Virus record (IMG/VR): IMGVR_UViG_3300020121_000217
Span: 1-47,032 of that record
Length of the DNA stretch: 47,032 nt
DNA from: a virus
Reading direction: 5' to 3' (one strand)
Shown piece by piece: positions 2,552 to 47,032 of this stretch. The notes beneath the pieces are model-generated. The model did not search any database and was not told the origin of the DNA. It worked only from the letters and a program-made list of their open reading frames with translations. The position numbers were made by a program, and so were the translations under genes. Within the stretch, counting starts at the first letter, position 1; every line of letters begins with the position of its first letter.

Positions 2552-2805
2552 GAGGGCTCACCAGCCTGCGCGGCAGTTGCCTTGGTTGGCCGCCCACGGC
2601 GTGCTGGCGCTACGGCTTCCGGCGTCTCAGGCTGGACCGGCTCGGATGTGACCGGATCCGGTACGACCGGGGCCGGCTCGTCGAGGGTCACGTCGAACAT
2701 CGGCGCGAACGCCTCGACGATCGGGTCGGCGGCGTCGAGTTCGGTGCCGCCGATGATCGTGCCGCCGCCGTGGTGGAACGTCTCCCGTGCCCGCGCGGTG
2801 CTCAT
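2548..2805 (-). CDS. Hypothetical protein (85 aa) with Pro/Glu/Thr/Val-rich tail and an RRGRPTK (AT-hook-like) motif
   Basis: C-terminal part of ORF 2548-3330. ATG at 2805 (MSTARARETF) overlaps the glycosyltransferase stop (ATGA). Confidence 0.6.
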   Translation of the reverse strand: MSTARARETFHHGGGTIIGGTELDAADPIVEAFAPMFDVTLDEPAPVVPDPVTSEPVQPETPEAVAPARRGRPTKATAAQAGEPS

Positions 2806-3554
2806 ATCTGTGCTCCTACATGCGTCGGGGACAGGAGTCCGTTCGCCACGAAGTAGCTCTCCAGCGTCAAGGTGCGCTGCTTCACGTGGCCCAAATTGAT
2901 GGATGTGTTGACGTACACGGGGATCTCGCACATGCCGGCGCGCCAGCAGAACGTGATGTCCTCGCTGACCGGCCGTCCGTCGGTCTCGGTCTCCTGGAAC
3001 CACGGGTAGGCCTGGTTGAAGCCGGTACGGTCCGGGGTCTTCGGTGACTGGTAGTCGCGGATCCGCTCGAACGCGGACCGGTGGACCAGCAGGCATGCGG
3101 CTCCGGTCGCGGCGACCTGGAACATGGCGTCCGGCTCCCACGTGTGGAACCGGACGACCTGCGTCTTGCCGTCGACGTCGTCGACGCCGTAGAGGGTCGG
3201 CTGGACGTCGCCGTCGGCGTCGAAGCCGAAGCACAGGCCGCCGACGATCGGCGCCTTGTCCGGATCCGCGTACTCGAGGAGCTTCTCGACGATGTCGGCC
3301 CGGAACGTCATGTCCGCGTCGACCATCCACAGCCAGTCGGCGGCGCCGTACTCGAGGAACCGCTCGACGAGGCCGTTGCGGGGGCCGGCGAGGTTGGTGC
3401 CGGCCTTCGCGGCCATGAAGCCGCCGCCATCGACGATCCGCTGGTGCGTCGCCGTGTCGAACATCAGCAGATGGATCATCGACTCCATGAACTCGCCCTG
3501 GACCAGGCCGGGATACAGGTAGCCGACGACCACTTTTTCGGATGGGTCACGCAT
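2802..3554 (-). CDS. GT-A/GT2-like glycosyltransferase (250 aa)
   Basis: ORF 2802-3554 with DxD in WLWMVDADMTF. GGAGG-containing RBS (CCTGGAGGAGTGAGCA) lies upstream of the ATG. Confidence 0.8.
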   Translation of the reverse strand: MRDPSEKVVVGYLYPGLVQGEFMESMIHLLMFDTATHQRIVDGGGFMAAKAGTNLAGPRNGLVERFLEYGAADWLWMVDADMTFRADIVEKLLEYADPDKAPIVGGLCFGFDADGDVQPTLYGVDDVDGKTQVVRFHTWEPDAMFQVAATGAACLLVHRSAFERIRDYQSPKTPDRTGFNQAYPWFQETETDGRPVSEDITFCWRAGMCEIPVYVNTSINLGHVKQRTLTLESYFVANGLLSPTHVGAQI

Positions 3555-14781: not shown

Positions 14782-15638
14782 GAGGCTCTCCGATCTGGAC
14801 GGCGAAACGGAATGATCTTGGCGGTCGGTTCTGCGGGTTCGGGAGTATGAACCATCGGCGGATCGGGATCTCGGTTCGGTGGTGTTTCGCGCGTATCACC
14901 GTGAGGTTCGGTCAAAAGCTCAGCCGTCGGATGGTTGGTCGGTTCTAAGGTGGTAGGTCTCTGGTAGGTAGCACCCCGTCCGGTGGGGTGCAGATCGGTC
15001 GTCAAACGGGGTGCAGATCGGTTTTCGGGCACCGTCAAATGGGGTGCAGATCGGTCTGGTGGCCCGGTTTCTGCACCCCGTGCGGTGGGGTGCAGGTCGG
15101 TGTTGTCCACAGGGGCCGGATCCGTCGTCCCCAGGTTGTCCACAACTCCTGGCGTTTCTGCACCCCGTGCGGTGGGGTGCAGATCATCCGCGTCGGTGTC
15201 TTCCGCACCCTGTCCGGTGGGGTGCAGGTCGGCGCTATCGGTGGTGTATTCGCCTTTTTTCGCGGCCCGGATCTTCTCGATCGCGAGGTCCGCGGCCGCG
15301 GGTGTCGGGACATCGATGCGTTCCATGACGTCGGGGTGCAGGATCAGCTGGTATCGGGTTGCGGGCGTGATCGTGCGGCCGTTGATGCGCCGCCCTGAGC
15401 CCCGGCGGACGACGCCGAGGAGGCCGGCGTTGCGCAGGATCGCCGTGTGTTTCTGGACGGTGTTGTACGACATGCTGCCGTCGTAGGCGACGCGGGCGAT
15501 GCCGGGACGGACGTTCGTGCCGTCGGGGTCGGCGTAGCTGGCGTAGATCAGCGCCACCAGCTTGGTGGTCTTGTCGAGGCGCGACCGGCGGACGATGTTG
15601 ATCCAGCCGAATGTCGCTACGCCGTAGTCGTCGGGCAC
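14778..15638 (-). CDS. Putative replication initiator-like winged-helix/HTH protein containing its own iteron array (286 aa)
   Basis: GTG 15638 lies 7 nt after AGGAG. The N-terminus (LVALIYASYADPDGTNVRPGIARVAYDGSMSYNTVQKHTAILRNAGLL) looks like a wHTH. The middle has DLHPTxxGAE peptide repeats caused by DNA iterons. Confidence 0.55.
   Translation of the reverse strand: MPDDYGVATFGWINIVRRSRLDKTTKLVALIYASYADPDGTNVRPGIARVAYDGSMSYNTVQKHTAILRNAGLLGVVRRGSGRRINGRTITPATRYQLILHPDVMERIDVPTPAAADLAIEKIRAAKKGEYTTDSADLHPTGQGAEDTDADDLHPTARGAETPGVVDNLGTTDPAPVDNTDLHPTARGAETGPPDRSAPHLTVPENRSAPRLTTDLHPTGRGATYQRPTTLEPTNHPTAELLTEPHGDTRETPPNRDPDPPMVHTPEPAEPTAKIIPFRRPDRRAS
14971..15233. repeat. Iteron/palindrome array: GGGGTGCAG(A/G)TC boxes, four of them paired as TGCACCCC-N7-GGGGTGCA palindromes (candidate ori)
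   Basis: Boxes start at 14985, 15008, 15041, 15087, 15174 and 15219, plus 15333 outside this span. Palindromes lie at 14971, 15072, 15159 and 15205. TTGTCCACA occurs at 15103 and 15136. Confidence 0.8.
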
Positions 15639-15642
15639 GTGC

Positions 15643-16485: not shown

Positions 16486-17742
16486 TCAGGTGCGCCGCTG
16501 CAGCTGGGCGTAGTCGGACGGGTTGAGGCCGTAGCCCCATGCGGCGGCGGCGATCGGTGTCGGGATCGATCCGGGGACGGTTAGCCCGAACTGGTGGCGG
16601 GTGCCGTCGCGTTCGGGGGTGCCGTTGGTGCACAGCAGCACCCGGACGGGTTCGTCGAAGATCTGCTCGGGCAGGTCGTAGAGGGTGAGGGTGTGGCCGG
16701 GGTTGCCGGGGTCTTCGGCGGTGCCGCCGATCTGGGCGAAGCGGCCGGCTGCGATGAACTCGGGCCAGCCCATGCGCTCGATCGCGCAGCGGCGGATTTC
16801 GGCGTTGCGTTCGCGGATGATCCGTTCGACGGTCCAGCCGGGGCCTTCGATGAGGTCGCCGGGTACCTGGGTGCCGTGCCAGTACCAGACTGCCCAGCCG
16901 TCGGCCCAGGTCCGTGCGGGACCTGTGGCGTTGTGGGGGTCGTTGTTCGGGTCCATGTGGACGGACGTCTGCCGGTCGACGAGGATCGCGAACTTGGGGT
17001 GCTCGATGCGGCCGGCGGTCTGGCGGGCGAGGGTCTCGTAGTGCTGCCATTTGTCGTAGACGGGTAGGTTGAGCTCGGCGATGTGGCGGAAGAACGACAG
17101 GTAGGCGCACCAGCCGGACCAGTCGGATCCGCTGGCGTACATGCGGTACCACTTCGGCAGGCAGGCCAGGTAGAAGCGAACCAGCGCCCCGGTCGCCGCC
17201 CCGGTCGCCGCGTAGGTCGCCGCGCGGGTCGCCGCGTAGGTCGCCGCGTCGGTCGCCGCGTCGGTCGCCGCGTAGGTCGCCGCGTAGGTCGCCACGTCGG
17301 TCGCCGCGTCGGTCGCCGCGTCGGTCGCCGCGTCGGTCGCCGCTCCGGTCGCCGCTCCGGTCGCCGGTGGTGGTGGCGGTGGGGTGGTGCCGGTGAGTGC
17401 GGCTTGGCCTCTGGTGACGGCGAGGTGGCATGTTGGGGCGATCGCGGCGAGCATTTCGGCTTCGGTGACGGTGCGGCCGAAGAGCTGTGCGTGGGTGGCG
17501 GGGTTGTCTCGTAGGTACCAGATGGATGCGGCGATGGTTCCCGCGATGGCTGCGGTCATGGGTGAGGAGACGTGGGCGATGCGTGCGGGTGGTGTGAGTT
17601 TTGCGGCGGCGTAGAGGCCGCGGATGGCTGTTACGGCTGTTGTGTGGTCGGCGGGCGTCGTCGATAGGGCGTTGTCGATCCACGTCTGTGCCCAGTCGTC
17701 GAGTTGTTTTTTGTGTTCCGGATGGTCGTCGAAGCTGTACAT
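16486..17742 (-). CDS. Hypothetical two-domain protein with central Pro6 + (x-A-A-T)15 repeat linker (418 aa)
   Basis: ORF-track ORF. C-terminal domain: WYWHGTQVP...[16 protein letters not shown]. Function unknown. Confidence 0.75.
17191..17370. repeat. 15 x 12-nt perfect-period tandem repeat GGTCGCC(G/A)C-NNN (in frame)
   Basis: Counted unit by unit from 17191 (17191 + 14 x 12 = 17359 for the last unit). Confidence 0.95.
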
Positions 17743-23504: not shown

Positions 23505-24758
23505 ATGGCGAGTCGACGCAAACGCCCTACGGCCCGCCTCGGCGCAGATGGTTACTGGCACGTGTGGGTCACGGTCGGGACCAAGCCGAACGGCCGGCCG
23601 GACCAGCGCCATATCAGCCGCGAAACCCAGGACGCAGCCGAGGACGATGCCGACGAGGTGCTCGATCAGCTCAAGGTCGGCCAGGTTCTCAAACCTGGCG
23701 CGAAGCCAACCGTCAAGAGCTGGATGACGATATACCTGGCGACCGTCGCGCCACGTCGATGCAACCCCAGCACCATCTACGACTACGGCTCCAAGATGAA
23801 GAATTGGGTCTACCCGAACTACGGTGCGAAGCGGCTCGACCGCCTGGCGCCGGAAGACCTGGACGCGATCTACCTCGCCATGAACGAAGCCGGGAAGGCA
23901 CAGTCACACCAGCTCAAGGTGCACCGCATCCTGTCTCGCGCCCTCGATATCGCACTGCGCCGCGGACACGTGACCCGAAACGTGGCGAAACTCGTGGACG
24001 CACCATCAGTCGACCCGGTGAGTACGAAAGCACTCGCCGAGCCGGTCGCGCGAGCGATTCTCCAGGTGACGGCGAAGCGTCGCCACTCGGAACGATGGGA
24101 TGTGGCGTTCGCCCTCGGGCTGCGCCAGGGCGAGGCGCTGGGCCTGCGGTGGGAAGACGACGACGGCACCGTGCTGGTCGACCTGGACGCCGGCATGCTT
24201 CACGTCTGGTACCAGCTTCGGCGCCTCATCTATGTCCACGGCTGCGGCGGGAAATGCGGCCGGGCGAGGGCCGCCGAGTGCCCCCAGGCCTCGGCCGGCG
24301 GTCTCATGTATCGAAAATGCAAAGGTAAGAGCAAGCGGTCAATTCCGATCCCGCCCGAACTCCTTCCGAAGCTCGCCGCGGCCAAGAAGCGGCAGGCGGC
24401 TGAGAAGCTGGCGCACGCGGGGCCGTGGGCAGCCGGCAACGCCGTGTTCACAACGATCGATGGCCGCCTCGTCGATCCGCGGGACGACTACGACGAATGG
24501 GTGTCGATTCTCGAAGAAGCCGGCGTCAAGAAGGTCAAGCCGCACATCATGCGCCACACCGCCGCGACTCTGCTCCTCGCACAGGGAGTTGACGTCCGCG
24601 TCGTCCAGGAGCTGCTGGGCCACAGGGACATCCGCACGACGCAGGGCTACACCCAAGACGTCGACGTGCTACTCGTGGAGGCGATGAAAAAGACGGTTCT
24701 ACGCACCCCGACGAAGATCAACAGTGTACAAAACCGTGTACTGAAGGCGGTTGAATGA
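23505..24758 (+). CDS. int: Tyrosine integrase (417 aa)
   Basis: AGGAGGA RBS. GLRQGE (Arg I), HIMRHTAAT (H-x-x-R), LLGH and TTQGYTQ (catalytic Tyr region). Confidence 0.9.
24714..24742 (+). repeat. 29-bp direct repeat copy 1 (AAGATCAACAGTGTACAAAACCGTGTACT); arm-type site candidate
   Basis: 27/29 identical to 24940-24968. Contains GTGTAC twice. Confidence 0.8.
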
Positions 24759-24818
24759 GCCTGAATAGACATGAACAGATAGCCCCTGTTCAGGCACTTT
24801 CATGATCGTTCAGACAAC

Positions 24819-24869
24819 AGCGTCGCACTCGTAATGCGTAGGTCCCGAGTTCGATTCTCGGAGGCGGCT
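24819..24869 (+). other. attP core: 3' portion of a tRNA-Thr(CGU) gene (anticodon arm, variable loop, T-arm, 3' acceptor strand)
   Basis: Anticodon loop CTCGTAA (anticodon CGT). T-arm CCGAG-TTCGATT-CTCGG. 3' acceptor strand AGGCGGC. No matching 5' acceptor strand or D-arm upstream. Confidence 0.75.
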
Positions 24870-24878
24870 CGGCAACAC

Positions 24879-24926
24879 GAAACGGTCCGCTACCAGGCTT
24901 TTCAGCCAACGGTAGCGGGCCGTTTC
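24879..24926 (+). terminator. 16-bp-stem hairpin directly after the tRNA fragment (probable tRNA terminator carried in attP)
   Basis: GAAACGGTCCGCTACC / GGTAGCGGGCCGTTTC with one mismatch. Confidence 0.55.
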
Positions 24927-25797: not shown

Positions 25798-26199
25798 CTA
25801 GCGGACGGTGAAGGTTTTACCGAGGGATGAGATTAATTCGGTTTCGCCGCCGCGGTGTATGACGAGGATCGGCACGCCCTGGGCGAGCCCGTGCGCCTCG
25901 CACTCGGCCGACGTCGGCATCCGCACCTCGAAGTCGGTCCCGCGCATCAGTGGCTGGATCTCGCTGGGCACGTCAGCACGCACCCAGGTGCCGCGGCCTG
26001 GCTCTACGCGGATTAGGCCTTCGATGCGCAGCTCGCGCAGGGCGCGCCGTACGGTCTCGCGCGCCAGCCCGTAGGTCTGCATCAGCCTGTTCTCGCTGGG
26101 TATCAACGTGCCCGACGGCAGCCGGCCGTCGGTGATCTGCGCGCGCAGCTCGGCCGCCAGTTGCCGGTAGACGGCGGCGTCCGGGTTGCGCTTGATCAC
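25798..26199 (-). CDS. Short GntR-family transcriptional regulator (133 aa from GTG 26199; ATG 26364 is the longest alternative)
   Basis: YRQLAAELRAQITDGRLPSGTLIPSENRLMQTYGLARETVRRALRELRIEGLI is a GntR wHTH. The 26364 start would overlap the DUF397 gene by 49 nt. Confidence 0.7.
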   Translation of the reverse strand: MIKRNPDAAVYRQLAAELRAQITDGRLPSGTLIPSENRLMQTYGLARETVRRALRELRIEGLIRVEPGRGTWVRADVPSEIQPLMRGTDFEVRMPTSAECEAHGLAQGVPILVIHRGGETELISSLGKTFTVR

Positions 26200-26210
26200 G
26201 TAGCGGGACG

Positions 26211-26229
26211 GTAGACGCTCCGGTAGACC
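26211..26229 (-). promoter_or_regulatory. Two GTCTAC boxes (minus-strand reading) upstream of the GntR start
   Basis: GGTCTACCGGAGCGTCTACC on the minus strand. A related CTAGAC lies at 26249. Confidence 0.35.
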
Positions 26230-26315
26230 TGTCCACTTGTGTACCTCTCTAGACGAGTACGCGCGGATGGCGCCGCCCTCGGGTCGGCGCCATCCGTAGA
26301 TCCTGTAGCGGAGTG

Positions 26316-26513
26316 CTACTCGTCGAACTCGCCGGCGCGCACGCCCTGGGTGAACGCCAGCCATTCGGCGGCGCTGAAGACGAGCAGGGGCCCCTCAGGG
26401 TTCTTGCTGTCGCGGACGGCGAACGCGCCGCCGGTCGCCTTCATCTCGACACAGTTGCCGGACTCTCCACTGAAGGAGGACTTCCGCCAGCCGTCTTCGG
26501 TTTCGTTTTCCAC
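26316..26513 (-). CDS. DUF397-domain protein (BldB-like small protein, 65 aa)
   Basis: WRKSSFSGESGNCVEMKATGGAFAVRDSKNPEGPLLVFSAAEWLAFTQGVRAGEFD matches the DUF397 signature. Confidence 0.85.
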   Translation of the reverse strand: MENETEDGWRKSSFSGESGNCVEMKATGGAFAVRDSKNPEGPLLVFSAAEWLAFTQGVRAGEFDE

Positions 26514-26977: not shown

Positions 26978-27206
26978 CGCAATCCCATCGTTCGCGCGAA
27001 GTCAGCGGCGTGGAGTTCCTGCCTGAGATATCCGACGCATGGGAACGGGCGGCAGCAGGTACACAGCCAGCGCAGTGGCCACCTAAGCCGATGGTGAAGA
27101 ACATTCACGATCGTCTACCCCCTACCTTCCGCCGTGGATCCGGACATACATTGATGTGCAGGACTACAGCGTCGCCAGGCATCCACGACCGTTGAAGTAC
27201 CTAGCC

Positions 27207-27222
27207 GTCTACACCCGTCTAC
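27207..27222 (+). promoter_or_regulatory. Tandem CCGTCTACA boxes 10 bp apart, 14 nt upstream of the XRE gene start
   Basis: GTCTAC at 27207 and 27217, plus a third at 27113. Confidence 0.35.
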
Positions 27223-27236
27223 AGATCGCGCAGCCA

Positions 27237-28442
27237 ATGGCCGAAACGTTCGCCGAAGTGCTCAAATCAGTCCGGGAGGCAACCGGGCTGAGTCTCAGCG
27301 CGATCGCGGCCCGAACACACTTCGGCAAGTCCACGCTCGGGCACATCGAGAACGGCATACGTCAACCGTCGGCCGAGATCGCCGCCGCGTGCGACAAGGC
27401 GCTCGGCACGTCGCCGCTGCTCGCGCGACTGTTCGACCTCGACGGAAAAGGGGACACCGTGCAACGGCGGACGCTGATGAGAGGCATTGCAGCCGGCCTA
27501 GGCGGCGGCGGAATCGGCATGGACTTCTTCGCCGCGCAGGTCCAAGCCGGACTGCTAGAGGCAATCGGTGAACCCCACGACTGGGACTCGATCGTCGACA
27601 CCTACCGGCGGCGCCTGGTCCAGGAGCCATCGGCGGAGTACGGGGAGTCGCTGCTCACGGAAGTGACGCTCGCGCATTATCTGGTGGTCGACGCCGGTGG
27701 CGACGACAAGACCATGCTGCGGGCGGCCGCCGAGCTTTCGCATCTCTACGGCCTGTGGCTCGGTAACCAGAGCCGGATCGTCGCGGCGCACGGCTGGTAC
27801 AAGACGTCGATCATGCTGGCCGACCGCAGTACCGACCTCGAACTGACGACCTACATGATCGGCCGGACCGCATCCCGCGAGGTCTATGAAGGAGCGACGC
27901 TCAGCGAGACGATCGCGGCCGCGGAGAAAACGCTGGCGTTGTCACGGACCGCGACCCGCGGTGTGCTCGAGGCGAACTCGGCCTTAGCCCATGCGTGGGC
28001 CCTAACCGGCGACCTTGCGAAGGGCCGCACGGCGATCATCGGGATGGAGAACGTCGCCGGCGAGCTCGCGGACGCGGACGCGATCGCCGGCCCGGTTCAG
28101 CGGACATGGAGCGTCCGGACGTTCTTCGAGTGCCGCACCGCGCCGATAGACGACGCGTACGAGGTGTTCAACCAAGCGGAGCGGATGTTGCGGTCTGCGC
28201 CGGTGTGGCTGGTCGAGGCCCGCATGTACTGGGCCCGCGCCCAGGTCGCCGCCGGCGATGTCACCGGCGGGATCCGGTACGCGTTGGAGGCGATCCGCAC
28301 GAGCGGGCAGGATGCGCGGATAATCGGGGTAGCAGTCCGCGACATCCTCTTCGTCGTCCCGGCCGGTTACCGGTCGGAGGAGCTGGACGAGCTGCGTCTG
28401 TACGCCGCCAAGGGCGCGATGCCATGGGAGATGCTCGTATGA
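27237..28442 (+). CDS. XRE-family HTH regulator with long helical (TPR-like) C-terminal domain, WhiJ-like (401 aa)
   Basis: MAETFAEVLKSVREATGLSLSAIAARTHFGKSTLGHIENGIRQPS is an XRE-type HTH. The C-terminal ~330 aa is Ala/Leu-rich and helical. ORF-track start 27156 is possible. Confidence 0.75.
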   Translation: MAETFAEVLKSVREATGLSLSAIAARTHFGKSTLGHIENGIRQPSAEIAAACDKALGTSPLLARLFDLDGKGDTVQRRTLMRGIAAGLGGGGIGMDFFAAQVQAGLLEAIGEPHDWDSIVDTYRRRLVQEPSAEYGESLLTEVTLAHYLVVDAGGDDKTMLRAAAELSHLYGLWLGNQSRIVAAHGWYKTSIMLADRSTDLELTTYMIGRTASREVYEGATLSETIAAAEKTLALSRTATRGVLEANSALAHAWALTGDLAKGRTAIIGMENVAGELADADAIAGPVQRTWSVRTFFECRTAPIDDAYEVFNQAERMLRSAPVWLVEARMYWARAQVAAGDVTGGIRYALEAIRTSGQDARIIGVAVRDILFVVPAGYRSEELDELRLYAAKGAMPWEMLV

Positions 28443-28646: not shown

Positions 28647-28880
28647 CTACTTACCGTTGCCGATCTGCCAGGCGCGGGCCGGCTCGACGTGGAGACGCTC
28701 GGCGATCTTCTCGTACGTCATCCCGCTCGCATGCATCTGCTCAACGGCTGCCCGGCGCATCGCCTTCAGCTGAGCCTGGATGTCCGGGAGTGCGTTGAGC
28801 ACCCGGCCGATCTCGATGGCCCGCTCGGCTGGATCGGCGATCGCCCCGATCCGTTCGATGTCAGCCAAGGGGTTCTCCAT
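28647..28880 (-). CDS. Small HTH protein (77 aa), divergent from the transfer-like operon
   Basis: MTYEKIAERLHVEPARAWQIGNG is HTH-like. TAAGAT lies 6 nt upstream of the ATG. Confidence 0.6.
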   Translation of the reverse strand: MENPLADIERIGAIADPAERAIEIGRVLNALPDIQAQLKAMRRAAVEQMHASGMTYEKIAERLHVEPARAWQIGNGK

Positions 28881-28936
28881 TCCGTGATCTTAATGGCGTG
28901 GTAACGAGAGCGTAAGGGGTGGGTTCGTGAGCGCGC

Positions 28937-28976
28937 AATGCCACCCCTTGTGAAAATACTATGGGTGGCATTAGAT
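28937..28976 (+). promoter_or_regulatory. Promoter TTGTGA-17 nt-TTAGAT ending 7 nt before ATG 28984 (leaderless-type), bracketed by a 10-bp inverted repeat
   Basis: AATGCCACCC (28937-28946) and GGGTGGCATT (28963-28972) read directly. Confidence 0.5.
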
Positions 28977-28983
28977 TGACGGC

Positions 28984-29754
28984 ATGACCTCATCGACCGT
29001 CCTCACAGAGGACACCGGACAACTGGTTGTCCTGACCGACCTCAACGCCGACCCGGACCCGCTCCTCACTGCGGCCGAGGCCCTGACCGACACGCTCGGA
29101 TGTATCCCCAGCCGCAACGTGCTGATGCAAAAACTTCACGTCGGCGTCCCGCGAGCGAACAGGATCCGCGAACAGCTCATCACCAGACACCCGGATGTCC
29201 CGGTATCCGGTGGAGCGCCGGCTACCTACCCCATGCCGGCCACCTATACCCGGCCCGACCAGCCGGGACAACCGGCCGAGCCGGTGGGTGTCCCGAAGCC
29301 GCACCGCCGCGCACGGCGGGTCCGTTCCTGGCCGCTGATCCTGATCGCGCTGCCGGCGTTCGTGGCGATCTGGTCCGGCTGGGTCGGCCTCGGCGGCCTC
29401 ACCGGATTCGGGATCGTGCATCCGTTCCCGGGCATCGATGACGGGATCCAGCTGAACACAGCGATCACGCTCCCGATCGGGGTCGAGGTCTATGCCGCGT
29501 ACGCGATCCGCGTCTGGTTGTCCCCCTGGGTGTCCGACCGCGCCCGTAAGTTCGCCCGCCGGACATCGGTCGCCGCGCTGGTCCTCGGCGCCGGTGGCCA
29601 GATCGCCTACCACCTGATGGCGGCCGCACACATGACCCGCGCGCCGTGGGAGGTCACGACCGCCGTGTCCGCGCTACCGGTCGCTGTCGTCTTCGCCGGA
29701 TCCGCACTCGCGCATCTGGTCCACAAAGACCAGCCGACGACTACGTCGGCCTGA
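28984..29754 (+). CDS. Polytopic membrane protein, DUF2637-like (256 aa)
   Basis: Soluble N-terminal ~110 aa followed by 4-5 hydrophobic segments (WPLILIALPAFVAIWSGWVGL ...). Sits upstream of an FtsK-like gene as in AICEs. Confidence 0.6.
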   Translation: MTSSTVLTEDTGQLVVLTDLNADPDPLLTAAEALTDTLGCIPSRNVLMQKLHVGVPRANRIREQLITRHPDVPVSGGAPATYPMPATYTRPDQPGQPAEPVGVPKPHRRARRVRSWPLILIALPAFVAIWSGWVGLGGLTGFGIVHPFPGIDDGIQLNTAITLPIGVEVYAAYAIRVWLSPWVSDRARKFARRTSVAALVLGAGGQIAYHLMAAAHMTRAPWEVTTAVSALPVAVVFAGSALAHLVHKDQPTTTSA

Positions 29755-29769
29755 CGGAAGGAGATCCAC

Positions 29770-29919
29770 ATGACCGAGAACAACACCATCACCGACAAGC
29801 AGATGGCTGACTTGACCCGCCGAGCGCAGAAAGCCGCGACCGGATCGATGTTCTCGAAGGACGCGGTCGACCGCCGCAACGCCAGTAACGCGCAGGCCGC
29901 GAAGGCAGACCAGTCCTAG
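29770..29919 (+). CDS. Small protein (49 aa), not in the ORF track
   Basis: GGAAGGAG RBS 6 nt before ATG 29770. My translation: MTENNTITDKQMADLTRRAQKAATGSMFSKDAVDRRNASNAQAAKADQS. Confidence 0.5.
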   Translation: MTENNTITDKQMADLTRRAQKAATGSMFSKDAVDRRNASNAQAAKADQS

Positions 29920-30007
29920 ATGCGCCCGGCGCGCGGCCTGCCGGCCTAGGAACCTCGGCCGCGCGCCGGTCCCCTCCGTACCTCGCAGCACATCGGGAGA
30001 CCACAGT

Positions 30008-31768
30008 ATGACCTGGAAGACCGTTGCCTACCGCTATCTGGCCGGCCGGCCGCTCGACGGCCGCGCCGGCTATCCGTACCTTCGACCCGGCGCGGGCCGG
30101 CTGGCGGGCTGGCAGCGCCAGATCGCCCGGGTGGCGATCCCCGCCGCCACCGTGCTCGCCGCGGCCGAGCCGCACAACGCCGCAGTCGCCGCCACGATGG
30201 CCGGCATTGTCGCCGTCGTCGGGGTCCGCCGGCGGCTGCTGCGGCGCCGGTTCCGGCGCGAATACATCGCCCCGACCCTCGCGGCGGTCACCGCCCCGCT
30301 CGGGGGCGTACCCGTGAAGCTTCACGTCGACCCGGGCCTCGGGAACCTCACGCCGCGGCTGGCGAAGCCACTCAGCCCGGCCGAGCGGCACCTGCGCCGC
30401 GTCTACGGCGAACACGTCGAGCCGGTACTGCGGTGGCCGGCGGACCGGGCGATGCGCGGCCTGTGGCTGCTGCAGCGCATCGCGATACCGGTGACGTCGC
30501 GGGTCGCCGCGGCGGTCCGCCGGCCGGGGGAGAAGCCGGGCCCGCGGATCGAGCTGACGGCGTCGACGCCGTACCTGACCGCGGAGCAGCGCAAGCTGAT
30601 CTCGTCGATCATCACCAGCAAGCTGCCCGTCTCCGATCTCGTCGAGACGTGGGACCAGGTCGGCGCGAAAGTCACCGGCACCTGGGTCGTACGGAAGCGG
30701 CCGCCGTCACAGGTCGGCTACGACGAACTCGTCGCGGCGATGCCACGCCTCGCCGAATGGGAGTTCTACATCGGCCAGGGCCCCGGCAACACCGCGGTGA
30801 CGATCAGCCTGAAAGACGACTCGCCACACATCGCCGTGTCCGCCGGATCCGGCGCCGGCAAGTCCGTGCTCGCGCAGCTCCTCGCCGTCCAGGTCCTCGC
30901 CCGCGGCGGCCGCGTCACGATCCTCGACCGCAAGGGCAGCCACCGGTGGGCCCTCGGCCTACCGGGAGTCGACTACTGCACCAAGCCGGCCGCGATGCAC
31001 AACGCGCTGATCCGCCTCGCCGGTCTCGCCGACCAGCGCAACACCGATGCGCTCGACGAGCCGGAGGACTGGGACCCGGGCGTACGGCATCTCGTCATCG
31101 TCGAGGAGCTCAACGCGACGATCGGGCAGCTCATGACGTACTGGGCCGACATTCGGGAGAAGTCCGACCCGAAGAAGTCGCCGGGCGTGACGAGCCTCGC
31201 CGAGATTCTGTTCATGGGACGCGCGGCGAAAATCAACGCCCTCGCGATCGCGCAGATGCTGACCGCCCGGGCGATCGGCGGCCCGGAGGCGCGCGAGAAC
31301 TTCGGCATCCGGTTCCTCGCACGGTTCACCTCGAACGCGTGGAAGATGCTCGTCCCCGAGGCCGCGCAGCCGCGCGCTTCACGGACCCTCGGACGGTGGC
31401 AGGTCGTCATCGGCGGCACGGCGGTCGAGGTCCAGGTGTGTTACCTGACGGGTGCGCAGGCACGTGCGATCGCAGCGCCCGTTACCGGTCGCGCAGAAGA
31501 CCCTGATAGCGGCTTGAGCAGCACTGTCACCGGTAACGGCGGGGAAACCGGTAACACGGTCGACCCCCTCGCTGAGCCGATCACGATCCGCGAGGCGATC
31601 GCCGAAGGCGTCCTGCCGTGGGGCAAAGACGCCGTGAAGATGCGGATGCTACGGGCACGGAAGGCCGGACGGCCGGTGCCGGCCGTCGTCGGCAAACGCG
31701 GCATGCAGACGGCCCTGTACCGCCGCGGGGACCTGATCATCTGGGCCGAATCGGAGAAGGTGTCATGA
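30008..31768 (+). CDS. FtsK/SpoIIIE-family DNA translocase ATPase, TraB/TraSA-like (586 aa)
   Basis: Walker A in VSAGSGAGKSVLAQLL, Walker B-like HLVIVEEL, N-terminal hydrophobic segments. Confidence 0.8.
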   Translation: MTWKTVAYRYLAGRPLDGRAGYPYLRPGAGRLAGWQRQIARVAIPAATVLAAAEPHNAAVAATMAGIVAVVGVRRRLLRRRFRREYIAPTLAAVTAPLGGVPVKLHVDPGLGNLTPRLAKPLSPAERHLRRVYGEHVEPVLRWPADRAMRGLWLLQRIAIPVTSRVAAAVRRPGEKPGPRIELTASTPYLTAEQRKLISSIITSKLPVSDLVETWDQVGAKVTGTWVVRKRPPSQVGYDELVAAMPRLAEWEFYIGQGPGNTAVTISLKDDSPHIAVSAGSGAGKSVLAQLLAVQVLARGGRVTILDRKGSHRWALGLPGVDYCTKPAAMHNALIRLAGLADQRNTDALDEPEDWDPGVRHLVIVEELNATIGQLMTYWADIREKSDPKKSPGVTSLAEILFMGRAAKINALAIAQMLTARAIGGPEARENFGIRFLARFTSNAWKMLVPEAAQPRASRTLGRWQVVIGGTAVEVQVCYLTGAQARAIAAPVTGRAEDPDSGLSSTVTGNGGETGNTVDPLAEPITIREAIAEGVLPWGKDAVKMRMLRARKAGRPVPAVVGKRGMQTALYRRGDLIIWAESEKVS

Positions 31769-32016
31769 CACCCGCCCAGCACGCCCACAACATCCACGTC
31801 GTCCTGTGCCTCCTCGCCGTCGCCGCCGTCGTGCTGCTCGCCGTCCGGCTCGGCGGCGTGTTCCGGTTCCCGCTCGGACGGTGCCGGCGATGCCACGGCG
31901 CCGGCGTCCTCGCCGATCGGTCCGGGCAGCACTTCCGCTCCTGCCCGCGCTGCAGCGGCAACCGGCCACTGCGGCCCGAGCGCCGCGCCATCAACCGACT
32001 CACCCGTAAGGACTGA
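31765..32016 (+). CDS. Small TM + CxxC...CxxC protein (83 aa)
   Basis: ATG 31765 overlaps the FtsK-like stop (ATGA). VVLCLLAVAAVVLLAV, then CRRCHG...CPRCSG. Confidence 0.6.
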   Translation: MTPAQHAHNIHVVLCLLAVAAVVLLAVRLGGVFRFPLGRCRRCHGAGVLADRSGQHFRSCPRCSGNRPLRPERRAINRLTRKD

Positions 32017-32018
32017 CA

Positions 32019-32447
32019 ATGGCCGAACTACAGCCGTACCGCCCGGCCCGCGTCGAGTGGGAGGAGCAGATCCTGTCCGGCCGCCGCGATGCCGTCGAGG
32101 CCGAGCTGCAGCGCCTCGACCGGGCGGGCCAGCTCGTCAGCCGCGCCGGCGCGGTCGTCGAGAGCCGGGGCGTCATCTCGGTGAAGATCCGGCGCCGGGT
32201 GGAGATCGCTGGTGAGAGCCTGCCCGGCCCGCGCCGCGGACACCACCCCGGCTGGTACATCGGCATCCTGCTGTCGGCAACGGCGCTCGTCGGCGTCTGC
32301 GGCTGGATGGTGCTCGCGATCGTGTCCGCCGCGGCCGCGATCGGCACGCTCGTCCTGGGCGTCCTCGTCGTGGCCGGCGCGGTCGTCGTGCTGCCGAAGA
32401 TGCTCAGCGGTGACCGCTTCACCCAGATCATGAACATCCGCCGCTAA
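32019..32447 (+). CDS. Membrane protein (142 aa), Spd-like position
   Basis: ORF-track ORF. The C-terminal half is hydrophobic (WYIGILLSATALVGVCGWMVLAIVSAAAAIGTLVLGVLVVAGAVVVL). Confidence 0.65.
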   Translation: MAELQPYRPARVEWEEQILSGRRDAVEAELQRLDRAGQLVSRAGAVVESRGVISVKIRRRVEIAGESLPGPRRGHHPGWYIGILLSATALVGVCGWMVLAIVSAAAAIGTLVLGVLVVAGAVVVLPKMLSGDRFTQIMNIRR

Positions 32448-32464: not shown

Positions 32465-32496
32465 GGATCCGGCCGCCATCGATGGCGGCCGGATCC
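32465..32496. terminator. 32-bp perfect palindrome (16-bp stem) between convergent genes
   Basis: GGATCCGGCCGCCATC|GATGGCGGCCGGATCC read directly. Confidence 0.6.
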
Positions 32497-32528: not shown

Positions 32529-32756
32529 CTATGTATTTGTGACGATTGCCGATGCCCGTCTGGACGGCGTCGTCGCCTCACCAGTGATCACTCGTACCTG
32601 CTGGATCGTCTTGTATCCGCTGCGGATCATGATGTCGCTCTGCGTGGCGCCCGCGGCGCGTTCCTTGCGCATCTCGGCGTGAAGGTCGTCTTTGATCGCT
32701 GCGATTTCGGCAAGCGCCGCCTTGTGGCGTGCGCCGAGTTCGTCCAGTCTGCTCAT
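32529..32756 (-). CDS. Small hypothetical protein (75 aa), candidate regulator of the adjacent operator region
   Basis: ATG 32756 (MSRLDELGARH). The longer ORF-track N-terminus runs into the palindrome and is mirrored on the other strand. Confidence 0.55.
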   Translation of the reverse strand: MSRLDELGARHKAALAEIAAIKDDLHAEMRKERAAGATQSDIMIRSGYKTIQQVRVITGEATTPSRRASAIVTNT

Positions 32757-32773
32757 GACGCTAATGCTATCAG

Positions 32774-32811
32774 TAGTACTATGAATGGGAGCGCTCCCAT
32801 TCATAGTACTA
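32774..32811. promoter_or_regulatory. 38-bp perfect palindrome TAGTACTATGAATGGGAGC|GCTCCCATTCATAGTACTA within a field of AGTACTA boxes
   Basis: Verified arm by arm. AGTACTA occurs at 32775, 32805, 32834 and 32864. A 16-bp direct repeat GCTATCAGTAGTACTA lies at 32766 and 32855. Confidence 0.8.
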
Positions 32812-32850
32812 GCGCTAGTATATTCTGACCGAAAGTACTAGCCGTATCAC

Positions 32851-32880
32851 TTGTGCTATCAGTAGTACTAGCGCTATAAT
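32851..32880 (+). promoter_or_regulatory. Promoter TTGTGC-18 nt-TATAAT, with -10 ending 6 nt before ATG 32887 (leaderless-type); AGTACTA box in the spacer
   Basis: Hexamers and spacing counted from the sequence. Confidence 0.55.
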
Positions 32881-32886
32881 TACAGT

Positions 32887-33165
32887 ATGGACAACGCGGG
32901 AACCACCCAGACGATCGAAGACCTCGACGAGGCCATCTACCTCGAAGAGCAGGCCGTAGTCCTCGGACACCGCGCCCTCTACCTGGAACTGGTCGAGATC
33001 GTCCGGGCCGGATGGGTCGCCACCCTCGCCGACGTCCTGGACATCCTCCACAAGACCGGCGGCGACGCAGCCGAAGACTTCATCTGCGACCTGGACGACG
33101 CCAGCGAGTACGGCGAGCCGGCCACCCTGGCGATCGAGACCATCGAAGCCAACTACTCGATCTAG
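32887..33165 (+). CDS. Very acidic small protein (92 aa)
   Basis: ORF-track ORF with many Asp/Glu and very few Lys/Arg. Lower GC than its surroundings. Confidence 0.65.
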   Translation: MDNAGTTQTIEDLDEAIYLEEQAVVLGHRALYLELVEIVRAGWVATLADVLDILHKTGGDAAEDFICDLDDASEYGEPATLAIETIEANYSI

Positions 33166-37428: not shown

Positions 37429-39675
37429 TCACAGGGCCAGGATCAGCGGGGACCACAGCGACAGGGCATCGCCGGGCGAATGGAACTTGGCCACGCCGTT
37501 GACGGACGCCACGGACACGGTGAACGTCTGCGGGTTCGACGCCCCGGTGCAGCCGGACACGGTGACCCGCTGGCCGCCGACGTTGAGGTCGAACGGGTAG
37601 TCGGCGCCGCTGGTCGTCCACAGCGGCCCGGTCGTCGTCGTAACGGCGAAGGTCGCGGAGGTGCCGTCCCAGCCGCCGGCGGCGATGACGCAGCCGGCGG
37701 TGTCGAGGTGCCCGAGGACCGGGTCGTCGAGGGCGCCGACCTGCCATGGCGCGTACTGGGAGCAGGCTGCGGTCGCGGTCCACCGGTTGGTGTCGAGGGT
37801 CATCGTGTAGCCCTCGACGATCAGGGCGACGTCGTCGGGCGGGTGCTGGGTGGCTTTCTGGTCGATGTTGACGACGTCGGCCCGGTAGGAGATGTTCGGG
37901 GCGTCGAGCCATTTCTGGGCGAGCGTAGGGGTGGCAGTGAAGTCGAGCGGCAGCGTCGGGTAGCGCAGGCCTTGGACGGTGCCGAGGTGGGCGTTCCAGC
38001 CGGCGATGTTCAGCAGAGGGGTGTCGTCGGAGGTGTTGACCTGTACCGACGTGTCGTAGGTGCCGATGGTGTCGGTGCCGAGCGGCCCGGTGGTGGCGAT
38101 GTAGCGGGCGGTGGCGCCGCCGGTGCGGGAGACGGTAACATCGTTGCGGTTGCGCTGGTCGTCGTCGACGGGCGCGAACGGCGTCGACAGCTGCCCCAGG
38201 GCGACGTCGACGGTCAGGGCCGCGGTGAGGTTGTAGCGGGCGGTGCGGCAGGTGTAGGCGAGGCCCGCGGTGAAGCCGTCGTAGAGGACACCGCCATCGG
38301 CGGTTTCGCACTCACGCAGGACGTCGAGTATCGCGGCAACAGGCTGCGCACCCATCGCCATCGTCGATGTTCCGGTGATCGTGAACGGGATGCTTTCCTC
38401 GGCGCAGAGCCGGATCAGGCGCTCGTCGGCGGTTTCACCGGCCCAGCCGGCGGCCGGGGACCACAGGTTGTCGGACGGGTTCGAGGCCCACACCGCCAGG
38501 TGCGCGGCCAGGAACGCCGACGACGTTTTCGTCAGGAACGCCGGCGTGGCCGGGTTGACGACGATCGAGGTGATCGCGCCGAGCTGCTGGGCGGTGAACG
38601 CGGACGGGTCGACGAACGGGGAGCCGTCGACGGTCATCGTGAAGCCCATGTCGGCGCCGGTCTGGACCCCGTCGAGGATGATCGAATGCCACGTGCCGGC
38701 GGCCCACGCGCCACCGGAGTGCGTGTAGGAGACCGAGTTCGAGACCAGGCCGGGTGCCTCCGTGCCGACGTGGATCGTCGGCCCGTTGGAGCTGGTCGTG
38801 TCGATCTCGACCTCCCACACGGTGCCGGTGGCCGTCTCAATGTGCAGCGGCACGAAGTCCCCGGACGCGACCGACGACGAGAACGACAGCGCGACCCGCC
38901 ACGCGGACGCGGTCCCGGCGGGGACGGGCAGCGCGGCGGCCACGGAGCCGCCGCCGGAGAAGTCAGCGGACGCCGCCGTGCCGGGGCCGGCGGCGGCGCC
39001 GATCCCGACCGTGCCGGTGATAGCGAGCGCGGCGACGCCGGCGATCGTGGAGGCGAAGTTCACGGCGGTGCTCCCGTCCTCCATCGTCCAGTACGCGTAC
39101 GGGGCTATGGCCGTGGTGGTGATCGCCCGGTATGACGCGGAGCGCAGGGGTGTCTTGCCCTGGCCGAGGCGGCGCAGGGTGCCGCCCGCGGTGACGGACA
39201 CGATCGCGAGTTTCGCGGAGGTGTCCCAGCCGGGTGTGAACCCGACCGTGTTACCGACATACAGGACGGTCGGGCCGGAGCCGAGGTCCACGCGCACACG
39301 TACCGGCGTGTTGCGGCGCACGTTCGGGTAGTACATCGACGCCGGGTTGTACGCCGAGTACGCAGCGTGGCTGTTGAGGAGCGTGAACCCGAGGCCGGCC
39401 GCGGCGGCCTTCGATGTTTCGTCGCCGCGGCCCAGCGAGATCGCGACCCGGGTGGCGTACATGACGTCGGCTGTGACATCCGTCCACGACCAGAAGTCCG
39501 GCAGGCCGTTGGGGTCGGCACCGAACGCGAACTCGACCCAGATCCGGGCGGTCGGCCCGAAGATCCCGGTCATGAACGGCATGCCACCCAGCGACGCACC
39601 GTACTGCGGGCCGGGCAGGTTCCGGGACCGCAGTCCCCACGACGCCGCCCGGGCCGCTACCGATCCGGCCGGCAC
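37429..39675 (-). CDS. Large minor tail protein, Dit-like N-terminus fused to a Tal/receptor-binding-like body (up to 748 aa; start uncertain)
   Basis: IWVEFAFGADPNG...WTDVTADVMYATRVAISLGRGDE...YYPNVRRNTPVRVRV is typical of siphovirus distal tail proteins. GTG 39675 or ATG 39582. Confidence 0.7.
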   Translation of the reverse strand: MPAGSVAARAASWGLRSRNLPGPQYGASLGGMPFMTGIFGPTARIWVEFAFGADPNGLPDFWSWTDVTADVMYATRVAISLGRGDETSKAAAAGLGFTLLNSHAAYSAYNPASMYYPNVRRNTPVRVRVDLGSGPTVLYVGNTVGFTPGWDTSAKLAIVSVTAGGTLRRLGQGKTPLRSASYRAITTTAIAPYAYWTMEDGSTAVNFASTIAGVAALAITGTVGIGAAAGPGTAASADFSGGGSVAAALPVPAGTASAWRVALSFSSSVASGDFVPLHIETATGTVWEVEIDTTSSNGPTIHVGTEAPGLVSNSVSYTHSGGAWAAGTWHSIILDGVQTGADMGFTMTVDGSPFVDPSAFTAQQLGAITSIVVNPATPAFLTKTSSAFLAAHLAVWASNPSDNLWSPAAGWAGETADERLIRLCAEESIPFTITGTSTMAMGAQPVAAILDVLRECETADGGVLYDGFTAGLAYTCRTARYNLTAALTVDVALGQLSTPFAPVDDDQRNRNDVTVSRTGGATARYIATTGPLGTDTIGTYDTSVQVNTSDDTPLLNIAGWNAHLGTVQGLRYPTLPLDFTATPTLAQKWLDAPNISYRADVVNIDQKATQHPPDDVALIVEGYTMTLDTNRWTATAACSQYAPWQVGALDDPVLGHLDTAGCVIAAGGWDGTSATFAVTTTTGPLWTTSGADYPFDLNVGGQRVTVSGCTGASNPQTFTVSVASVNGVAKFHSPGDALSLWSPLILAL

Positions 39676-46388: not shown

Positions 46389-47032
46389 CTATCCGAGTGC
46401 CCGTTTGATGCCCGCGGCCAGGTCGACCGTCGGCGTGTAGCAGCGCAGCATCGACGTCGGGTCACCGACCCGGTACGGGACGCCGACGCCGGGTCCCTTA
46501 TCCAGGAAGTTGAACCTGCGCGGAATCCCGGCCGGGTCGCACATCATGCAGGCAAGATCGAACATCGACGTGCCGACGCCGGTGCACAGGCTGACCGCTT
46601 CCTCGGTACCGGACTCGACAACCGCCAGCGCGCCGGCGACCACGTCATCGACGTGGATCCAGTCGCGGACCTGGTTACCGTCGCCCCAGATCTCGAACAA
46701 CTCGACATCGTCCGAGTTCATCGCCGTGACATATGCCTCGCGGATACGCCGGGCCCTGGCGGCGAAGGCGCCGAACGGCCAGTCAGTGCCCTGATCCTCG
46801 CCGTATCCGGAGTACGGCCGCACGACCGTCACCGGCACGCCGGCGGCGCGCGCGTTCGCGGCCAGCCGCTCACCGGTCAGCTTCGTCGCCGCATAGTCAT
46901 CGACCAGGCCGTCGAGGGCCGCGCACGACGACAGGTACAACACCCGGCGCTGACCGGTCCGGATCGCCCAGTCGTACATCGCCGCGTCGAGCATCGCGTT
47001 GTACGGGTGCATACCCGGGTCGCCGTCGATCG
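46389..47032 (-). CDS. NAD-dependent epimerase/dehydratase, C-terminal part (continues from 1-335 across the junction)
   Basis: YAATK (YxxxK) catalytic motif. ORF-track ORF 46389-47012 starts at an internal Met. Confidence 0.8.
   Translation of the reverse strand, partial: IDGDPGMHPYNAMLDAAMYDWAIRTGQRRVLYLSSCAALDGLVDDYAATKLTGERLAANARAAGVPVTVVRPYSGYGEDQGTDWPFGAFAARARRIREAYVTAMNSDDVELFEIWGDGNQVRDWIHVDDVVAGALAVVESGTEEAVSLCTGVGTSMFDLACMMCDPAGIPRRFNFLDKGPGVGVPYRVGDPTSMLRCYTPTVDLAAGIKRALG
46906..47032. repeat. Contig-end overlap, second copy (identical to 1-127)
   Basis: See feature 1-127. Confidence 0.95.

Follow-up and report, generated by a model that had tools for sequence, protein, structure and literature searches.

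An operon probably homologous to conjugative transfer modules resides in a lineage of Micromonosporaceae prophages

Gene flow by phages and gene flow by conjugative elements are usually considered apart. Conjugation in mycelial actinomycetes needs a single FtsK-like pump. In Streptomyces plasmids and the integrative and conjugative elements of actinomycetes (AICEs), one FtsK-like protein moves unprocessed double-stranded DNA (dsDNA) between hyphae, small hydrophobic Spd proteins spread the dsDNA across cross-walls, and GntR-type regulators control transfer (PMC2440964, PMC3218068, PMC3583192). AICEs measure 9–24 kb and carry Prim-Pol/RepAM replication genes and no virion genes; pSE211 is listed as conjugative (PMC2440964). 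A plasmid-phage with a conjugal transfer locus, pZL12, is already on record in the passages of PMC3583192 and PMC4487206 that cite Zhong et al. 2010. Here we examine an operon of five plus-strand genes at 28984-32447 of the viral record IMGVR_UViG_3300020121_000217, a metagenome-derived sequence of 47,032 bp that represents an entire JGI contig and is called the window throughout. The operon shares its replicon with a siphovirus-type virion module. Judging from its two large products, a 586-aa ATPase and a 256-aa membrane protein, it is probably homologous to conjugative transfer modules.

All five open reading frames (ORFs) that the initial annotation assigned to the operon are intact and stand where it placed them (Table 1). 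High G+C content at third codon positions (GC3) backs the genes of the 256-aa, 49-aa, 586-aa and 142-aa products, and the GC3 of the 83-aa gene is 0.92. The ATPase matches 67 plasmid records, 58 of them from Streptomyces, over its motor domain at 37–46% identity; the plasmid homologues are annotated as pRL2-11, DUF87, "Tra protein" or FtsK. pRL2-11 itself, from the 20-kb linear plasmid pRL2, is 42% identical to the window ATPase motor over 283 aa (E = 3e-60) and is preceded on the same strand by a DUF2637 membrane protein gene, with a GntR gene further upstream. The annotated gene order on pFRL6 is DUF2637, "Tra protein" and "conjugal transfer protein". Classical plasmids are absent among the 60 of the 67 plasmid matches that were listed, as is SAP1, from which a transfer system of two genes is reported.

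The 256-aa membrane protein has no match in Pfam, PHROG or NCBIfam. Its 2,638 homologues include SACE_7022 of the AICE pSE211, and the relative on a Kribbella AICE (L036 in our numbering of loci and records) is 48% identical (E = 2e-75). In AICEs of Saccharopolyspora gloriosae and Kribbella, which also carry GntR, Prim-Pol, DUF3631, xis and int genes, a protein of this type is encoded directly upstream of a 724–734-aa P-loop protein. This large protein of pSE211-type AICEs was considered as a homologue of the window ATPase and rejected, the two having only the P-loop in common and belonging to different clades. A unit consisting of a polytopic membrane protein, an FtsK-like ATPase and small proteins is common to AICEs, plasmids and this phage, and its parts are exchanged between unrelated or very distant families. 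We conclude that the matches support non-phage relatives, in transfer loci of conjugative elements, for both large operon proteins, and in the same adjacent-pair arrangement.

Two labels given to the operon by the initial annotation were dropped. The 256-aa protein had been called DUF2637-like; it has no Pfam match to DUF2637 (PF10935), shows no BLASTP similarity to the DUF2637 proteins of locus L001 and pRL2, and reaches an hhalign probability of 0.4%. It does fill the slot held by DUF2637 proteins in sister loci and on plasmids, which suggests that the two types are interchangeable partners. The module had also been ascribed to a pSAM2-type backbone, of which the homology of both large proteins to AICE and plasmid transfer modules survives and the pSAM2-type label does not. 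No plasmid-type Rep family was detected among ten early-region ORFs in a scan of PHROGs, and the ATPase is not detectably related to the transfer-locus ATPases of SLP2 and pZL12: the FtsK/SpoIIIE protein of SLP2 gives no significant alignment, sharing the P-loop at most, and pZL12.71c gives an hhalign probability of 1% and no tblastn match. In SLP2 the FtsK/SpoIIIE gene is preceded by an spdB2-like membrane protein, which is unrelated to both the window-type and the DUF2637 membrane-protein families.

The 586-aa protein carries the Walker A motif SAGSGAGKSV (aa 278–287) and the Walker B-like motif (LVIVEE, aa 362–367) described by the initial annotation, and their key residues, together with many other residues of the motor, are invariant across 39 homologues. 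The fold supports its assignment to FtsK/SpoIIIE; Pfam does not. FtsK_SpoIIIE (PF01580) was not matched at E < 0.01, the only matches being DUF87 (the HerA central domain) and AAA_10, and NCBIfam gave short P-loop matches to TraC, TraD and CedD. When the AlphaFold (AF2) model, with a predicted local distance difference test score (pLDDT) of 81, was searched with Foldseek, the best match was TcpA, the coupling protein of pCW3 (8e-17), the second was the FtsK motor (5e-13), and EccC/EssC followed. TcpA (PDB 6o1w-6o1z) was also the top sequence match among solved structures, at 17–18% identity. The ATPase family comprises 1,061 clusters at 50% identity in a library of 1.84 billion representatives; 41 of 78 distant members match DUF87 and 24 of the 78 match PF01580. 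This profile places the subfamily on the border between FtsK and HerA, where Pfam barely recognises it.

The ATPase is laid out as a helical N-terminal region, the motor at about aa 180–490, a disordered linker and a conserved C-terminal domain at aa 527–585. In the N-terminal region the hydrophobicity profile holds a single weak segment (aa 55–73, mean Kyte-Doolittle 1.49), long helices are modelled at 34–95, and a crude scan finds one transmembrane (TM) segment in many homologues. The C-terminal domain has a helix-helix-beta-hairpin-helix topology (model pLDDT 94.6) and its motif is kept in the wider family. Pfam returned nothing for it and a PDB profile search returned noise only; the modelled fold looks like a winged or MerR-type DNA-binding domain.

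We compared 29 loci in a census seeded with the ATPase itself, using our own crude GC3-based gene calls in sister loci, except where a tool supplied them, and maps labelled with Pfam. The ATPase is by far the best-conserved gene across these loci, in which the other genes are mostly unrecognisable and the accessory genes next to the ATPase differ widely from locus to locus. The membrane protein encoded upstream is of the window type or DUF2637, never both. Homologues of the ATPase with 60–68% identity are plentiful across Micromonosporaceae, many of them on contigs of 42–49 kb. The host of the window element is probably a member of this family, because homologues of the operon proteins come overwhelmingly from Micromonospora, Actinoplanes, Dactylosporangium and their relatives.

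The gene order of the window recurs in several of these genomes. In Micromonospora chersina, a GntR gene is followed by genes for a 412-aa XRE protein, a 261-aa membrane protein, the ATPase and a 73-aa protein, and then by converging GH25 lysin and tail genes. Isolate genomes of Actinoplanes and Krasilnikovia have the window architecture, and so does a second metagenome contig of 47,025 bp, with an integrase, a GntR gene and a divergent small helix-turn-helix (HTH) gene. Two independent Dactylosporangium matsuzakiense assemblies (L002 and L003, contigs of 45,521 and 45,424 bp) share the architecture as well; here a ParA (CbiA) gene comes after the DUF2637-ATPase pair, lysis and tail genes are present, and the stretch seen holds no integrase. 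Elements of the latter type are probably episomal, given their ParA and the lack of an integrase in that stretch, and may be a phage-plasmid member of the lineage. The initial annotation had regarded the module as unusual, which it is not within its own phage lineage, and had proposed a search for the same synteny in related genomes; because that synteny was found in independent genomes, a chimeric join is ruled out as far as sequence can do so.

The same ATPase clade also occurs outside complete phages. Nine loci share the chromosomal flank lepA-rpsT-holA. Integrated elements at rpsT-holA with this clade are present in Micromonospora and Plantactinospora (L039, L010, L012, L014-L018, L020 and L030). 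L039 (6454-19976) is an element of about 13 kb with HTH_36, DUF2637, ATPase, HNH, Terminase_7, AbiTii and large serine recombinase genes and no virion genes, a mix that reads as AICE-like or phage-satellite-like; other loci at the rpsT-holA site have the window-type membrane protein instead of DUF2637. Pfam detected only methylase, HNH and hydrolase in the cargo of non-phage islands. In a neighbour-joining tree, a simple distance tree without support values, the window ATPase falls among prophage-borne sequences, on a deep branch next to the ParA-bearing contigs, with plasmid sequences as the outgroup and the ~13-kb rpsT-holA elements as a derived clade nested within the prophage-borne sequences. 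The initial annotation took a phage-restricted ATPase clade to speak against transfer; the tree comes near to that refuting outcome, yet the clade also holds the virion-less ~13-kb elements. Because it occurs in such elements and on the ParA contigs, a role tied to virion production is unlikely. Only one of 50,697 phage records matches the ATPase, that of Streptomyces phage Dagobah (MT711977), whose 309-aa homologue (L004, 2547-3476) consists of the motor only, without the N- and C-terminal regions. The Dagobah gene lies among small hypothetical genes near the terminal repeat.

The initial annotation described the 83-aa product as a TM protein with CxxC..CxxC motifs and the 142-aa product as a membrane protein, and hydrophobic-segment predictions agree with both. 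The ATG of the 83-aa gene at 31765 overlaps the ATPase stop codon (31766-31768), and the protein has a weak DnaJ_CXXCXGXG match (0.0022). In six loci (the window, L019, L023, L024, L025 and L032), a protein of 70–86 aa that has a single TM segment and a pair of CxxC motifs shows translational coupling to the ATPase. The 142-aa protein has no family match and no homologue in sister loci. The 49-aa ORF likewise has no family match, and tblastn found no homologue of it in sister loci; the same slot is occupied by small ORFs of 51–64 aa in L001 and L032.

Oriented against every lytic gene, the operon has the immunity genes on one side and the lysis cassette on the other. An operator-flanked promoter had been proposed upstream of 28984, and it is plausible. 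An inverted repeat, ATGCCACCC (28938-28946) / GGGTGGCAT (28963-28971), with full arms of 15 nt that are 87% complementary, overlaps two hexamers read by eye, TTGTGA (28948-28953) and TAGATT (28972-28977), which are separated by 18 nt and end 6 nt ahead of the ATG at 28984. The repeat and the readable hexamers support the proposal, whereas a consensus promoter scanner did not call TTGTGA-18-TAGATT. The exact 9-mers of the repeat occur elsewhere in the window only once, at 39581. Because the -10 hexamer ends 6 nt before the ATG, the arrangement suggests a leaderless or near-leaderless operon mRNA. At the other end of the operon, the 32-bp perfect palindrome noted in the initial annotation is present. 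Folded as RNA, it gives a stem of 14 bp and a loop of 4 nt (z = -5.06; 0 of 200 shuffles were as stable) without a U-tract, and a terminator scanner based on T-runs did not call it. It is likely a factor-independent terminator lacking a U-tract, which would be bidirectional because the palindrome is symmetric. A stem-loop at 29919-29976, in the gap between the 49-aa ORF and the ATPase gene, was considered as an attenuator and rejected, being no stabler than shuffles (z = -0.72).

Both regulators that the initial annotation reported near the operon, a GntR protein and a small HTH protein, were found. The divergently encoded 77-aa HTH protein has weak Sigma70_r4_2, HTH_23 and HTH_31 matches, a PHROG HTH match (5.7e-5), and homologues of 42–46% identity in the sister loci L019, L024 and L025. 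Its position makes it a candidate local repressor acting on the shared intergenic operator. By tblastn the GntR protein is 42–45% identical to GntR genes of the AICE L036 and of the sister phages L023, L025 and L032, the value for L036 being 45%; it is also 42% identical to a match in the second half of the pZL12 record, home of the GntR gene pZL12.80. It is a candidate Kor-like repressor, the kor role being one that we infer.

How these parts might work together can be stated only conditionally. We read the operon as a plasmid- or AICE-type dsDNA translocation (Tra/Spd-like) module by which the phage genome, excised or episomal, would pass from one hyphal compartment or hypha to another; we advance this function tentatively, as one that may well be right and that we would stop short of calling probable. 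A Tra/Spd-like module long resident in a Micromonosporaceae temperate-phage lineage would be the best explanation of the sequence features. The grounds for a transfer module are that the right parts are present, in the right order and from the right families, that the operon has its own putative promoter and terminator and a candidate operator, that it reads against the lytic genes, and that its ATPase clade is also found in elements making no virions. Since it runs against these genes from a putative promoter of its own, its expression from the prophage or the excised circle would be independent of the lytic programme, and a repressor could shut this promoter through the inverted repeat. The ATPase would assemble as an FtsK/TcpA-like ring at the membrane or septum, where the polytopic 256-aa protein and the small TM proteins would assist it as Spd-like partners. 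Its C-terminal helix-turn-helix domain would pick DNA bearing a recognition site, and the ring would pump the circular phage genome, possibly host DNA too, across cross-walls or into a neighbouring hypha. The integrase would then insert the phage genome at a tRNA attachment site (attB); besides travelling in virions, the element could thus pass between mycelia in contact, with no lysis. We infer all of the following: that a ring forms and sits at the membrane, that it pumps DNA and which DNA this is, when the operon is expressed, and that transfer takes place.

A wider version of this proposal seems doubtful to us. It holds that the whole Micromonosporaceae phage lineage, in its integrative and ParA-bearing episomal forms, is conjugative and moves its excised genome as dsDNA between hyphae and past cross-walls without virions or lysis, and that the 13-kb elements, in which the ATPase sits beside HNH, small-terminase-like and serine recombinase genes, are reduced derivatives that spread by conjugation and possibly by helper-phage packaging.

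Several observations weigh against a transfer function. The N-terminal membrane anchor of the ATPase appears weak, its C-terminal domain has no significant Foldseek match (best E 0.66, in a list made up mostly of winged helix-turn-helix and MerR-type regulators), and no clt-like repeat cluster (8-bp array) was found in or beside the ATPase gene. A relation of the ATPase to the transfer-locus ATPases of SLP2 and pZL12 is not detectable by sequence comparison. The phylogeny is mostly phage-borne; since the ATPase lies among prophage-borne sequences with plasmids as the outgroup, the gene may have taken on a role specific to phages. Actinophages commonly carry FtsK-like genes of unknown function (bioRxiv 10.1101/2024.02.16.580700; PMC13587820). 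Names annotated on plasmids are not tests of family function, and our search found no published transfer test for the pRL2-11-type ATPase subfamily. Transfer of an integrated prophage without lysis, finally, needs excision that is uncoupled from induction.

The location of the operon, on the lysogeny side between the immunity genes and the lysis cassette and against the lytic genes, would also suit a prophage-expressed system in which the ATPase and its partners block incoming DNA, either as superinfection exclusion of related phages or as entry exclusion of plasmids and AICEs with a shared transfer route, to the benefit of the lysogen. The strong variation of the accessory genes around the ATPase fits such a role, as does the pairing of the same ATPase with AbiTii in the 13-kb rpsT-holA elements. 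PADLOC adds a weak match to mad8 of MADS (6.7e-7) over the P-loop region; this match amounts to 27 bits and covers aa 263–334, about 70 residues round Walker A, and the other four operon proteins have no PADLOC match. Unlike fast-turnover defence cargo, however, the ATPase is the most conserved gene of the loci, and the relatives of both large proteins sit in transfer loci, not in defence islands. We therefore regard exclusion or defence as unlikely.

We consider it less likely still that the ATPase serves segregation or intramycelial maintenance, distributing excised or episomal phage genomes across cross-walls into spores, in the manner of chromosomal FtsK/SpoIIIE-type pumps of sporulation septa, and so securing vertical inheritance. 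In favour, the hosts belong to a family that grows as mycelium and forms spores, the FtsK motor ranks second among the structural matches, and the sister 45.5-kb contigs, with ParA and no integrase in the stretch seen, are probably episomal. The window, on the other hand, carries an integrase along with an attP-like site, and the ParA of the sister elements has no homologue in it; an integrated prophage needs no such device. Maintenance of this kind overlaps the spreading half of the translocation proposal, from which it is hard to separate by sequence.

A function in the lytic cycle, such as DNA entry or the handling of a replication compartment, and a decaying remnant of a captured AICE are together quite improbable. 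FtsK-like genes do occur in lytic Streptomyces phages (bioRxiv 10.1101/2024.02.16.580700), and the truncation of the Dagobah homologue at both ends would agree with either a lytic role or decay. Yet a lytic role sits poorly with an operon that reads against the lytic genes and with an ATPase clade found in elements without virion genes, and decay sits poorly with five intact ORFs of strong coding signal and with motor residues invariant over 39 homologues. An AICE or plasmid fragment misjoined to a phage contig during assembly, conceivable for a single metagenome-derived contig, is close to refuted by the same gene order in the M. chersina, Actinoplanes and Krasilnikovia isolates, the two D. 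matsuzakiense assemblies and the 47,025-bp metagenome contig, by the lack of a G+C break at the module borders, and by a contig that closes on itself.

The circular replicon with a tailed-phage virion module announced by the initial annotation was recovered. An exact direct terminal repeat of 127 bp (1-127 = 46906-47032) supports a circular replicon, the contig being a closed circle of 46,905 bp, as its identical ends imply, or a terminally redundant genome. G+C content is about 63–74% per kb across the window, without a compositional step at the operon borders. Most genes lie on the minus strand, and the virion module, which spans the contig ends, comprises the small and large terminase, head protease, major head protein, tape measure, a large tail protein and endolysin. 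The best match of the large terminase is only 34% identical, no isolated phage being close, and megablast of the region against the 50,697 phage records gave no match. Just downstream of the gene for the major head protein, the virion operon includes two glycosyltransferase-like genes (883-2355 and 2802-3554) with PHROG matches of 4.8e-37 and 5e-13; the former also has a methyltransferase PHROG match (1e-50). Their products may modify the virion surface.

The integration site proposed by the initial annotation, an integrase beside a tRNA-derived phage attachment site (attP), held for the integrase. The tRNA is only partial, scores 23.6 bits with Rfam, below the gathering score of 29, and ARAGORN reported no tRNA in the window. 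Integrase and partial tRNA fit a candidate attP. A GC-rich hairpin seen by eye, GGTCCGCTACC...GGTAGCGGGCC at 24886-24922, directly follows the partial tRNA.

Table 1. Features of the operon, its flanks and the candidate integration site (window coordinates)
Feature	Position	Strand	Evidence and remarks
Tyrosine integrase	23505-24758	+	Phage_integrase 1.4e-18
Partial tRNA, candidate attP core	24808-24861	+	50 nt past integrase; Rfam tRNA model positions 10-63
GntR-family regulator, short C-terminal part	25798-26364	-	Pfam GntR 4.4e-18
HTH protein, 77 aa	28647-28880	-	Divergent from operon; GC3 0.85
Putative divergent promoter/operator region	28881-28983		Inverted repeat and readable -35/-10
Membrane protein, 256 aa	28984-29754	+	Soluble N-terminal part; hydrophobic 118-136, 157-179, 196-214, 228-246
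Hydrophilic ORF, 49 aa, coding status uncertain	29770-29919	+	GC3 0.86
FtsK/TcpA-fold P-loop motor ATPase, 586 aa	30008-31768	+	Pfam DUF87 3.8e-7, AAA_10; AF2 and Foldseek
TM and zinc-ribbon-like protein, 83 aa	31765-32016	+	Strong TM 12-30; CxxCxGxG...CxxCxG (CRRC...CPRC)
Last operon gene, 142 aa	32019-32447	+	GC3 0.94; soluble N-terminal part; TM 107-125 and preceding hydrophobic stretch
32-bp perfect palindrome	32465-32496		16-nt arms, 100% complementary; 18 nt past last stop codon

Other repeats and regulatory genes lie elsewhere in the window. A stretch of 860 bp at 14782-15640, without a convincing ORF, holds 8–9 copies of GGGGTGCAGATC(GG) in both orientations at 14970-15225, several of which form inverted pairs, GCACCCCGTnCGGTGGGGTGC. 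This iteron-like array looks like a candidate replication origin, or possibly a clt, the site that the translocase would recognise. Within a 418-aa ORF of the early region (16486-17742, minus strand), a 12-bp unit (with CGGCGACC) is repeated in tandem about 15 times at 17190-17370 and encodes a tetrapeptide repeat. Near the GntR gene, a DUF397 protein (26316-26513; 6.8e-23) is encoded close to a 428-aa XRE-type HTH protein with a long C-terminal domain (27156-28442); XRE-type HTH proteins of 412–420 aa are also found in the sister prophages L031 and L032, and the small plasmid L005 has a DUF397/DUF5753 pair. The AT-rich intergenic region at 32765-32877, just downstream of the operon, lies between divergent ORFs of 91 aa (32529-32804, minus strand) and 92 aa (32887-33165, plus strand). 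It contains TAGTACTA three times without mismatch (AGTACTA four times), as well as a near-palindrome of 29 nt. No further copy of TAGTACTA exists in the window, and three copies were reached in 0 of 100 shuffles; the region may be an operator set or another DNA-binding array.

If the proposed transfer function is true, hosts without the receptor could come within reach of an ordinary-looking integrative prophage, which could also escape resistance at the level of adsorption and spread in a colony without killing, and the host range of prophages and the gene flow they cause in antibiotic-producing Micromonosporaceae would be underestimated. Were the whole lineage conjugative, it would consist of phages with two routes of horizontal spread. 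Even under exclusion or segregation, an ATPase subfamily of about 1,000 clusters known only as DUF87 gains a context, as a protein of mobile elements that always has a polytopic membrane protein as its partner. As the module is widespread in sequenced isolates and consists of one operon with one ATPase, its function is easy to test.

Among described systems, pZL12 (GQ919031) resembles the window, as far as the cited passages and its record describe it, in having a virion module and a transfer-type locus on one replicon; the record lists the FtsK/SpoIIIE-like pZL12.71c, the membrane protein pZL12.73c and the GntR protein pZL12.80. It differs in being a 90-kb autonomous plasmid with ParAB, in its Streptomyces host and in an FtsK-like protein not detectably related to the window ATPase, whereas the window represents a 47-kb integrative element with int, an attP-like site and no ParA homologue. 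AICEs of the pSE211 type (pMEA-like) share with the window a tyrosine integrase with a tRNA-type att site, a GntR regulator (45% to that of L036), and the homologous membrane protein (48%), whose gene stands directly upstream of that for a large P-loop protein, with small genes next in line. They differ from it in carrying Prim-Pol/RepAM and no virion genes, whereas the window is a 46.9-kb circle with a full virion module. The layout of the AICE transfer module (a Tra ATPase, small hydrophobic proteins and GntR) is matched in the window by homology and gene order only.

pRL2, pFRL6 and about 60 further plasmids are like the window in the ATPase motor (37–46% identity), in the C-terminal motif and in a polytopic protein immediately upstream. 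They differ from it in that the N-terminal 180 residues of the ATPase cannot be aligned and in their DUF2637 partner; the partner in the window is not of this type, though sister phages use DUF2637. The TraB/TraSA type (pSVH1, pSG5, pSAM2 and SLP2) has in common with the window a single FtsK-fold motor, small hydrophobic partners and candidate kor-type GntR control, and moves dsDNA (PMC2440964; PMC3218068); the window differs in showing no sequence relation to the SLP2 protein beyond the P-loop, no PF01580 match and no clt-like array at the gene. TcpA of Clostridium perfringens pCW3 is the best match of the ATPase in both structure and sequence, at 17–18% identity. It works with a multi-protein Tcp secretion apparatus, to which nothing seen in the window operon is comparable; besides the ATPase, this operon encodes a single 4-TM protein and three small ones.

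Single FtsK-like genes in actinophages such as Mandalore, Naboo, Jaresh and AndoPrime are, like that of the window, phage-borne and of unknown role (bioRxiv 10.1101/2024.02.16.580700; PMC13587820); the window ATPase differs from them in belonging to an operon with AICE-type membrane partners. Our literature search found no paper on this module in Micromonosporaceae prophages. What is new compared with all these systems is an integrative 47-kb phage lineage, from another actinomycete family, that stably carries an AICE- or plasmid-type module built around a poorly annotated ATPase subfamily; because the module recurs in many related prophages, it is a real trait of this lineage.

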